Shown one piece after another: positions 32,097 to 37,436 of a stretch of DNA of 64,000 nt (positions are counted from its first letter, which is position 1; each line of letters opens with the position of its first letter). Below the pieces are notes generated by a model. That model was not told the DNA's origin. It worked only from the letters and a program-made list of their open reading frames with translations, and did not search any database. The stretch covers positions 434,001-498,000 of the forward strand of contig NW_015167536.1 in NCBI RefSeq assembly GCF_001447785.1. Direction: 5' to 3'. A program made the position numbers and the translations under genes. The DNA comes from Gekko japonicus (taxonomy: Eukaryota).

Positions 32097-35000
32097 ATTA
32101 GGTGTTTACATCATGCACACTCATTTTACACATAAATCACGCAATGTGCATGCAACACAGGAACACACACACTCCCCTAGGTCATCCGCAAAGGATCTAC
32201 AGTTTGGGGAAGGAATGTGAGGGTAATGGTAAGATTTTGTCCATGTTTAATACACACACACACACACACGCACCAGCCAAGCCTGCCGGAATGCTTTTCT
32301 GCAGGGTGGGGGGAAGGGGGTGCAGTGATTTGGTCTTGTCTAAAGCTGTACTGTCACAACACACACTTGCCTGCGACTAAAACCCATTGGAGCAAACTGT
32401 GCAATAAAGGCTCGCAATCTGACACACAGCTTCCTGGAGGATAAATCCCCTTCAGACGGCCATGGGCCTCCTTCCGAGTAAGCGTTCCTAAGGAAGGGAC
32501 TACCTATGGAGCCACTGCAGAGCCCGCCTGCATTTTTATACGGAAAAGCCTTGTACATGAACTGAAACTGTATTCTGGCTTAAAACAAAGCCGAGCGAGA
32601 AAGACACAGAGAGCGGGAGGCAGAAGGGGAGGGGGAGAAAGAGAACAACAGCCTTATGGAGACAAAAGGAACATAACTTACATTCTTTTCGTCCCCATTA
32701 GCTCCAATGGGAGATCAGCCCTGCTGAAGACAGGGCGCCGGGGGGGTTGTGGGGGAAAGGGTGGGGGGGGGGGGGGAGAGGAAGGTGAAAGAGATTGGAT
32801 CTTTAGTCATCTTGAAAATGAGGTTTGTGAGAATCCGGGGGGGGAGGTTTGCTCCAAACAGGGTGAAGGATCAAAGTTATTGAGACCCGCATCATGGTGA
32901 ACCGTATAGGTGGTGGTGAGGGAAGTGGGGAGGAAGAAAAAGAGACAGGCGGAAAGAATAGAAGAAGGTCCTCTTCTTTTCACTTTGCCTTTCTTCACCT
33001 TTAAGCGGGCACACGCACAGAAACTGAAAATCCGAATGGTTTCGCAGCCATTATTATTCGTTTTAAAAATTCGGTTGTATGATGGGGCGGGGGGAGGGGG
33101 CAAAGATTGGCAAGGGGGGGAAATAACTGCTGGAGGGTTTTTAAAAATAATTTGGTCACTGTAAATCCCCCCCTCTCCCCAGTATCGCCTTCCTGTCCCT
33201 TCCCAATGCCTATTTGCCCTAGCCTAGATGCTCAATGAAGACTTTGGGAGGACCTTGCTCGATTGTGTCGACTGTAGCAAATCGCCTCCACCCATTTTTT
33301 TTTTGAAGGGGGGAGAAAACAACTACCACTCTTCAGTAAATTAAGCGAATAAAATTACAAGCCAGTATGAATGGACTCCAAACGCAGGACGTGATGGAAG
33401 GAATAAAGTTGAGGAGCAATCTCTTAACGACATCAGCGGGGATAATGGCGTCCAGGTTTTATTTATTTATCGAGAGGGTCGGATCCGATGGACAAGAAAA
33501 CAAACCAAAACAAAAAACAAAACCCCAAACCCCTCACCTCCATGATTATTTCGATCTGTTTATCATTAGAAAGATTTTAAAAAGCAACAACCTCTGTTGG
33601 GTTCATTCCATTAAAGAAAGGAGACCCATAACGAGTGGTTTTGGTGAAAACATCTCCCGGCGGCTCATTTGTTATCCCTTGACTTTCATTTTAACAAGCC
33701 TTGGAAAGGAACTTCGGACACTTCCACTCGCAGAAAAAGCGAAAATGCATTGTTGAGAAAGAGAGAGAGGAAGGGAGGGGGAGAGAGAGAGAGCCCCCTC
33801 GCTTTCCCCCTCCACTCACCCTGTGTCACTTAACTTGTTCCTAAGCAGTACAAACATCTGATTTATTTTTTTTCGGAGACAGTATTAGACTTGCCTTCGG
33901 CCTGCCAGAGCAAGTCAGGAAAAGCTCTTTGTGCAAAAAAGGTCGTTTTTCTTTTAAAAGGGGTGGGTGGCTTCCTTAGTCTCTCTTTTTTTTAATCTTC
34001 CCTTTTAATTTTCTTCTCGATCACCTTTCCTTTCCTTCCCCCCCCCACCAATATGAAAAAAAACACTGATGGATTCCCCCCCCTTCTTTGCGCCTGCGAC
34101 GTAATTAGGCGGGGCCCCCCCCCCCCCCACACAAGCACCCAATCCGTTTTTCGCACTTTATGGATAATCCCGAGAACTTTCTAATAGAGTTGTCTCCCGG
34201 CAGATAACCAAAGTGAGAATTTCTGCTGTAAGCAAAGGGTTGCCTACCACACATATTTAAGCTTGTACATATAGCTGGATTGCTCGGGAGGTCATAAATT
34301 AGTACAATTAATTACCCCAGACTAAATGCGCGGCGCACAGTTGCCCTTCCTCGAAGTTGTGCTTTTACGAGCCTACCTCCGTATAGATACAGATATAGAT
34401 CTATGGACAGGGAAGGAGAGAAAGAGAGAGAGAGTCTATGTTCCCAGCGGAAGTTCGATTCTTTCCCGGTTCCATCTGGCTTCTTGAAAGAAGGGGTTTC
34501 TCTTTTCTCCAAGGAATCCGAGATTATTATCACTACTAATTTCTATGGGTTTCTCTTCTGGGGCTCTCCCTTTCAGAATCCAATAGCTTTCCCACCCATT
34601 TGTGTGTGTGTGGGGGGGGGAGTGATTGTTCCTTCAGTGCAGTTTAAACAAAACAAAAAGACATCTCGATTAAGAAACGTGTTTTTTCCTCTTTTTTTGT
34701 GTGTGTGACGTTAGCTATATACAGAAAGCTGCCCCTAGCACAGCAAAACATAACACCAATACAAGAACGGTTCTGTGACAATCAAAAAAGACACTAATAG
34801 GTACACCGGAAACGCTCAACACTATGACAGAAACATTGTTTGGAGCCATCACCCCCATTTTTTTCTCTTTCATCTTCCTTTCCCCCACGTTTCCCCCCCT
34901 TTCCTTTTGTACAAAAGATGCAGCCTCGACGTCATGAAATTAAAAAAAAAAACTGGATAAATTTTAAGTTACGAAATAAAATACTAAAAAAAATATTCAA

Positions 35001-35269
35001 GTACTTGGTTGTTTTCTGCAAAGAACAAGAAATGTTTATTTTTTTAAGTTGCAATTATTGTTATTCTTTTTTGTTTTTGTTTTTAGAAAAGCACTTTTTA
35101 TCTTCTTCTTTTTTTGTCTTCTGCTCCAGAAAGGGTTGCTGGGTCGAACTAATCTCTAAAACACTCATCAGCACACTCAACAAAAGTCAGAAAGACTTCG
35201 AAACCCCCAAGGAAGTGCCAAGCAGCGCCTCGGTTTTCTCCTTTCACTTGGGAGGGGACTCGGCCAATT

Positions 35270-35517
35270 TCACTGCTGGTCTTTATTATCGGTTTTCTCC
35301 TTGTTCATTTTCTTCATTTTCATTCGCCTGTTCTGAAACCAGATTTTGACCTGGCGCTCCGTGAGATTAAGCACCCGGGCCACTTCGTAACGGCGGTCCC
35401 GTGTAAGGTACATATTGAACAAAAACTCCTTTTCCAATTCCAGATTCTGGTACTTCGGGTAGGGGCACCGTTTCTTCCTTGTCGAACGTGCATGGATCCA
35501 GTTTGCCACAGGATTGT
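35270..35517 (-). CDS. HOXC9: HOXC9 exon 2 (homeodomain, with T9P and T13N)
   Basis: Acceptor CAG|AC at 35518/35517. Encodes (N)[71 protein letters not shown]...*. The 248 nt plus 535 nt give 260 aa. Confidence 0.96.
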
Positions 35518-37436
35518 CTGGAAAAGAAGAGTCGAGGGCGTTTAATATAAATCCATTATCTGAGCATCACTAACCCCTCATTACAGTTAGTTGTGGAGTC
35601 CCCCAAGCCATTCCTACACAATAATTATCCTTGCTTTATTAGAATAGGCGTCCCAGCCTTTTTGGCAACATGAGCTGATCATTTCTGAACTGACCTTCAG
35701 GGTAGTTTAAGGGCGTTAAGTGATTCTTTGATAGGAAGTGAGAAGGTGCCATCTACATCCACGTTGAAGGCAGCCAGCCATTTCTCCTTGCAATTTAGCA
35801 GGCTTGGGCTGCACCCTATTTCTGAGAATTATTTTATTTTCCAGCTAGGTGACCATCGTGTCCTACAAGTCTCAGTTTAAAAACAGAAACCGGAACAAAA
35901 GGTTTCATAACAACATAGTGGTGCACGTGGAAACTAGCAGGAGTCATCCAAGAACATAGTCATAAAAAGTCAAAATTCCCACCACTTCACAGGCCCATAA
36001 ACTCTGTTTACAACCGTCACTCTCCAGTCCTCTCGCTGTAACCTTCCTACTCCTGGAACCGCGTGCATTTTTATTTTTATTTTAATATCTGGAGGATGCC
36101 CCAGGATAACCTTTCTGGCTCCAAGAACAACATTTTCTCCCCCACAATCCTCAACCACCAGCACCCTTTTAAACTAAACCTCTCGACACTTTGTTACAGG
36201 GGAATAAACCACATTTCCCACTAATTAACTCGTGGGTAAAATTTTTGGAAACCAGTGCATTTGTTCCTAATTCAAGGCTATCGAGCTTCATGCCTCAGAC
36301 CTCGGTCCCGAGTCTACGACCCTTGTGTGCCTTTCCCGGGCTTGCAAGAGGGTAAACTGTGCCCGTCCACAAAGACACAAAAAGTTAGTAGGACCAAACC
36401 AGCCTTCGATCAGATTGTTAGGCCTGAAGGCGTTGTAAACACCTGGCCATGGGGATGGGACGGTGGGACTGGGGGTGTGCATAGAAATGCATGCACACAG
36501 ACGTGCATATACACACGAATTGACACCAGTTCTTGGAGGACTCTAGTCTATATTGCTCAGAAACAATCACCCAGGCTGAAATTACTTCGGTCCCCTCAAA
36601 AGTCCACGTTTTACTATGCAGGAGAATGATGACTTTTTAAAAACCACGAAGGCACAAGTCCTTTCAACACCCTATCTGCTTTCTCCCCCCCCCCCCCAAA
36701 AACAATGTTCAAGGGTATTTATTCTTTTGCTGCTTTCTCTGACAAGTTGAACTGCAGTCCACTTTTTAAAAAATGGCATGGTCCACTGCTCTCCCTTACT
36801 GAATCCCACCCCCATCTATCAGACTCCAGTGTCTATTTATACTTTTCCCAGCCCGATTATTTAGCTTTGGATAATCTACATTAATTTTCTCCCCCCCCCC
36901 CTTTCCCAGGACATTCCCCTTTGGCAAGATGTACAGATTTTATGAATCATGACGTGACTGTGGGGTTTCTGCTAGATCCCTTCTCCCCTACACACACATT
37001 TGAAAATATACACATGAAAATTATTTTCTCCCCCCCCCAAATACCCCCCCCCCCCACACACTCTTGTATTAACTGCTAGCCCGACTGGTTCCTCAAAAAC
37101 TCGGAAGGATCCAAGTGAGGGTTTGGGAGGTTATGAATATTTTATCAAACCTCTGGATTTCCCCCTCTTCAAGACCCCCAAATAGTCATTAAAAAAAAAC
37201 AGACTACCTCCCTTCTCCTTCCGCCCCTCTCCCCCCCCCCAACCCAAACAAAACTACTAGCAGTTCGTATGATCTTCTAAGTTAGGTTTCCTCTCTTTTT
37301 TTAAGCCTGTACGTTTGGAGGTTCGAGGCAGGGACGCCAAGAATTCTAAACAGCAAGGTAATTCCTTTTTATTGAGTACTGTGCAGGGGCGGCTGTAATG
37401 CCCTCCCGGTTGTAAACAAGAATGACTTCGACTTAC

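Follow-up and report, generated by a model that had tools for sequence, protein, structure and literature searches.

The HOXC9 gene of Gekko japonicus, as it stands in the window (the whole 64,000-nucleotide stretch that was analysed), encodes a homeodomain with proline at position 9 and asparagine at position 13, and we consider it very probable that these two codons are base errors in the assembled sequence of an otherwise ordinary HOXC9. The two residues are private to one assembly and lie at sites that are invariant in the comparable reptile HOXC9 proteins. We favour an artefact because the pair is absent from all of those reptiles and because two other Hox homeoboxes in the same assembly look garbled. 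A sequence-only reading of this DNA had identified the gene, pointed out both changes and warned of a local assembly error, and on these points it stood; its description of the proline as a radical substitution was overstated, for reasons given below.

The features of the gene are collected in the table. With homeodomain positions counted backwards from WFQNRR, the minus strand reads CCC TAC CCG AAG TAC CAG AAT CTG, or PYPKYQNL, and the letters for proline and asparagine are present at 35458-35456 and 35446-35444, as had been claimed. The rest of the gene is intact, again in line with the earlier description: two exons joined across a GT-AG intron give an open reading frame of 260 amino acids with canonical splice sites, and Pfam profiles recognise both Hox9_act and a group-9 homeodomain in the product. 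HOXC9 lies between HOXC10/miR-196 and HOXC8, and the three other group-9 genes are on other scaffolds. Among the best 120 of 237 matches, the named proteins nearest to exon 1 are 93-99% identical to it and are Hox-C9 from lizards, snakes and crocodiles; judged by its sequence, exon 1 is closest to HOXC9 and not to A9, B9 or D9. A contig from public run X2, putatively an RNA run, exits the window at 35517 and goes on with the end of exon 1, a loose end that we matched by eye, and this indicates that spliced HOXC9 exists in public data. The open frame, the canonical splice sites and the spliced contig rule out a pseudogene.

Features of HOXC9 in the window, with the two suspect codons
Feature	Position	Strand	Remarks
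Coding exon 1 (Hox9 activation region)	37971-37437	minus	PF04617, 230 bits; GT donor
Intron, GT-AG	35518..37436	minus	spliced form in contig of run X2
Coding exon 2, including stop codon	35517-35270	minus	AG acceptor
Homeobox, 60 codons	35303..35482	minus	PF00046, 70.0 bits, cut-off 22.9
Homeodomain codon 9	35456..35458	minus	CCG (Pro); suspect base 35458; presumed Thr codon ACG
Homeodomain codon 13	35444..35446	minus	AAT (Asn); suspect base 35445; presumed Thr codon ACT

The window protein equals the RefSeq prediction XP_015268987.1 (UniRef A0ABM1K5K0) over all 260 residues, Pro9 and Asn13 included. That record repeats the window observation and is not an independent confirmation. It is 8 residues longer at the N-terminus, starting from an upstream in-frame ATG at 37995 (8 codons, 37995-37972, minus strand), and the models of Gekko, Eublepharis, Paroedura, Sceloporus and Rhineura all share the same 8 extra residues. 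A miR-196 precursor was found in its expected position between HOXC10 and HOXC9 (47376-47449, minus strand, 85.5 bits).

In the window's three remaining homeodomains, position 9 is serine or threonine and position 13 is threonine (HOXC8 S/T, HOXC10 T/T, HOXC6 S/T), as the sequence-only reading had reported. It had also noted that each change needs a single transversion and that the two are close together, and this agrees with our analysis: if the ancestral codons were those presumed in the table, threonine would give each residue in one step, by ACG>CCG and ACT>AAT; both steps are exchanges between A and C (between T and G on the plus strand), and the suspect bases are 13 nt apart. When two changes are placed at random in the 780-nt coding sequence, they lie this close together in 3.3% of draws, and both land inside the homeobox in 5.2%. 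The pairing of the two changes exceeds chance within the gene.

The comparison with relatives was made on 327 proteins, from which 50 without a complete homeodomain and 9 outside group 9 were removed to leave 268 group-9 homeodomains. At positions 9 and 13 these carry T/T in 239 rows, T/I in 16, S/T in 11, S/I in 1 and P/N in 1. The sole P/N row is the Gekko japonicus RefSeq record; the other 267 all have threonine or serine at 9 and threonine or isoleucine at 13, so that Asn13 occurs in none of them, and the window protein departs from the residues expected of HOXC9 orthologs at both sites. Isoleucine at 13 was counted in 17 of the 268 rows and serine at 9 in 12, the named Ser9 rows being fish.

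Among reptiles, 29 of 31 HOXC9 homeodomains equal that of the window except for threonine at 9 and 13, and these rows span the geckos Eublepharis and Paroedura, the tuatara, turtles and crocodilians. The remaining two, the Heteronotia and Crotalus adamanteus models, were set aside as mis-spliced or otherwise not comparable. Over the full 260 residues, HOXC9 of the spiny lizard Sceloporus undulatus (XP_042303934.1) and that of the girdled lizard Hemicordylus capensis (XP_053152738.1) are each identical to the window protein at 258, differing only by threonine at 9 and 13. The two geckos Eublepharis macularius (XP_054859495.1; 255/260) and Paroedura picta (XP_077185177.1; 256/260) have three and two further differences, respectively. 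As nothing else differs from Sceloporus and Hemicordylus, even in the variable N-terminal part, there is no sign of relaxed selection. The human HOXC9 homeodomain in PDB 2MSY (2msy_A) is likewise identical at 66 of 68 residues and differs only at 9 and 13, and threonine occupies both sites in the solved structures 2MSY and 2LP0 (human HOXC9) and 1PUF (HOXA9).

Threonine at both sites in related species had been proposed beforehand as the result that would speak against a real change, and at the protein level it is what the 29 reptile rows have. Relatives alone are nonetheless insufficient against a change limited to one species. No second HOXC9 protein from the same species or from another Gekko was present among the best 120 of 237 and the best 120 of 161 matches, in 15 of the 34 squamate-cluster members or in 8 longer matches. 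The exact open frame of exon 2 was absent from the protein collection searched. In the literature covered, we found no account linking Gekko japonicus and Hoxc9 or describing a P9/N13 variant; the portions of PMC6791295, PMC11704414 and PMC4673495 that were covered contain nothing on such a variant, and the covered portion of the main text of a tokay gecko Hox paper (PMC11715542) has no Hoxc9.

We also surveyed the homeoboxes of the Gekko japonicus assembly itself, which consists of 191,500 contigs. It yielded 74 homeodomain matches, of which 52 were inspected in addition to HOXC6 of the window; 41 of those inspected are taken here to be Hox genes from their cluster order and signatures. Position 9 is serine or threonine in 50 of 52 homeodomains, the exceptions being HOXC9 of the window and a HOXC13 read in the wrong frame. 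Position 13 is threonine, leucine, valine or isoleucine in 51 of 52, and asparagine in none of the 51 others. Only four group-9 homeoboxes are found among the 74 matches, and T9/T13 is kept by each of the genome's six further paralogs of groups 9 and 10. HoxC3-like (C7826:328266-328436) and HoxC1-like (190570-190731) homeoboxes were observed as well, scattered beyond HOXC4 across more than 200 kb; lizards are known to retain such genes.

Two further Hox homeoboxes look faulty, bringing the number to 3 of 41 with HOXC9 counted; the other 38 are normal as judged by eye only. The homeobox at the HOXD3 position (C5592:138593-138760) is a mosaic: it matches HOXA7 exactly for 71 nt and HOXB6 exactly for 125 nt, the two blocks sharing the 45 nt that both genes have in common, and then passes into a HOXD3-type tail. 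Apart from these two, the longest exact match in the 1,326 homeobox pairs is the shared 45 nt, and 7 kb of surrounding sequence yielded neither a helix-1 nor a hexapeptide motif of HOXD3 type. The mosaic is likely a misassembly, such as would be expected where a path through a short-read graph passes from one paralog to another. HOXC13, on the window's own scaffold (C7826, about 540400), shifts frame right after RKKRVPYT and is about 5 nt short compared with its paralogs, which likely reflects an assembly error. HOXC13 has a role in claw and scale keratin control, and its loss, if real, would matter for that control. Both are themselves probable errors.

Several observations count against an artefact in HOXC9. 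The fault in the HOXD3-position homeobox is a mosaic and that in HOXC13 a deletion; neither is a point substitution. The nearest run of N is 8,760 bases from the site, so the suspect codons are not at a gap edge. Exon 2 of the adjoining HOXC8 equals that of another gecko over 89 amino acids, and the region is therefore not noisy in general. No second copy of the suspect stretch exists in the genome within 2 mismatches; thus neither a donor nor a threonine-coding alternative contig or haplotig was found. Finally, proline at position 9 is compatible with the homeodomain fold and the drop in the Pfam score is small: the two changes lower the PF00046 score from 75.6 to 70.0 bits, against a cut-off of 22.9.

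True mutations are mostly transitions. In the portions of the sources that we draw on, the commonest HiSeq substitutions are A/C (29.2%) and G/T (26.8%) (PMC3334598), and sequencing substitutions tend to cluster (PMC4787001). The A/C type of both changes and their clustering give modest support to an error origin. RNA editing was considered as a source of the two residues and is unlikely, A/C changes being an unusual editing type.

Public sequencing runs were compared with the window by shared words. Positions 35000-35900 are represented in twenty runs; of 90 sampled words, the fullest run contains 85 and six others 84, and no run contains all 90. None of these runs is recorded as RNA, a point to which we attach no weight. 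The seven runs at 84-85 words come from four studies. Words touching the two suspect bases make up 44 of 871, and mismatches there would remove about 4.5 sampled words if sampling were even. This ceiling fits weakly with private bases in the window, without localising them, and the missing words could also stem from polymorphism, from A/T-run length within the 3′ UTR or from the index. Run X2 matches 35488-35800 without any difference, so its six missing words sit in the other 588. When four runs were compared over 35420-35800, none covered bases 35458 and 35445: X1 and X21 had no coverage there, X19, which is from another organism, covered only 35556-35800, and X2 only 35488-35800. The X2 contigs start 30 bases past the proline codon because of the splice branch at 35517, and we give this start no weight.

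The same features can be read as real sequence in two ways. The sequenced animal may have carried a private or rare allele, a clustered double mutation, probably heterozygous, whose variant haplotype was kept by the assembler; its HOXC9 product would likely be weak or non-working and masked by the normal copy. A spacing of 13 nt is as compatible with one clustered mutational event as with one bad read, the upper limit on the words found in other runs suits this reading equally, and the site is free of gaps. We nevertheless regard such an allele as unlikely. It would require that an invariant helix took two non-synonymous transversions while nothing else changed relative to two distant lizards, both fall in the commonest class of sequencing error, a contig for the alternative haplotype is not found in the genome within 2 mismatches, and the assembly has other faulty homeoboxes.

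A change fixed in the species or genus, by which helix 1 would start with a TGIF-like proline and position 13 would be polar, is very unlikely in our estimation. The proposed consequence would be altered stability of HOXC9, or altered DNA and cofactor binding. HOXC9 is intact and spliced, Pro9-Lys10 is present in TGIF-type homeodomains, and the two sites are not frozen across group 9, as the Ile13 and Ser9 rows attest. Against this, none of the 29 comparable reptile rows, two geckos among them, has the change, and Asn13 is in no other homeodomain examined. Deep same-species runs should moreover reach the full word share if the change were fixed, and none of the 20 does, a point of little weight. 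The partial text of PMC3554521 reports that in mice lacking Hoxc9 every brachial Hox gene is released from repression at thoracic levels, and motor neurons gain limb fate, and from this phenotype strong purifying selection on HOXC9 is expected, which also argues against fixation.

What the alternatives imply differs. If the codons are errors, the public predicted gecko HOXC9 carries two wrong residues and its users should be cautious; a mosaic HOXD3, a frameshifted HOXC13 and this HOXC9 would together mislead Hox selection scans or claims of gene loss. If the change is real and fixed, it is a unique one in a homeodomain that otherwise does not vary among the compared reptiles and the human structure. 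As HOXC9 sets the limb/trunk motor-neuron boundary, a real change would give a limbed lizard with a remodelled first helix in the master repressor of limb-type motor-neuron identity, and a natural experiment on the amount of DNA binding by HOXC9 that the thoracic spinal cord requires. A chromosome-level Gekko japonicus assembly built from PacBio and Hi-C data and polished with Illumina reads is described in the part of PMC10776941 that we draw on.

Under the preferred explanation, an assembly or base-call artefact, the suspect stretch would derive from a single poor read or a few such reads, possibly in a setting where near-identical homeoboxes can tangle a short-read assembly graph. Two A/C miscalls (T/G on the other strand), 13 bases apart, would then have entered the consensus. 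The animal's own protein would be an ordinary Thr9/Thr13 HOXC9 and, by analogy with the mouse, may act to repress forelimb-level Hox genes in thoracic motor neurons.

Homeodomain position 9 presumably caps helix 1, and the residue at 13 is presumably partly buried. The description of proline at the cap as radical is too strong, since two homeodomains of the Gekko japonicus genome itself (C7820:1029240-1029620 and C12299:1261380-1261750), putatively TGIF-type TALE homeodomains, have proline at 9 followed by lysine. Pro9 in these proteins shows that proline at this position is compatible with the fold. Asn13 is without precedent among the homeodomain sequences examined (51 from the animal's own genome and 267 of group 9). 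A real double change would likely weaken the domain rather than destroy it.

Two further known systems resemble the HOXC9 of the window. The TGIF-type TALE homeodomains share its Pro9-Lys10; in contrast to HOXC9, they belong to another class, carry a three-residue loop insertion and have valine, not asparagine, at 13. The clustered base errors and paralog-walk mosaics of short-read drafts share with it A/C substitutions lying close together, and a homeobox that is a mosaic of three paralogs is present in the same genome.
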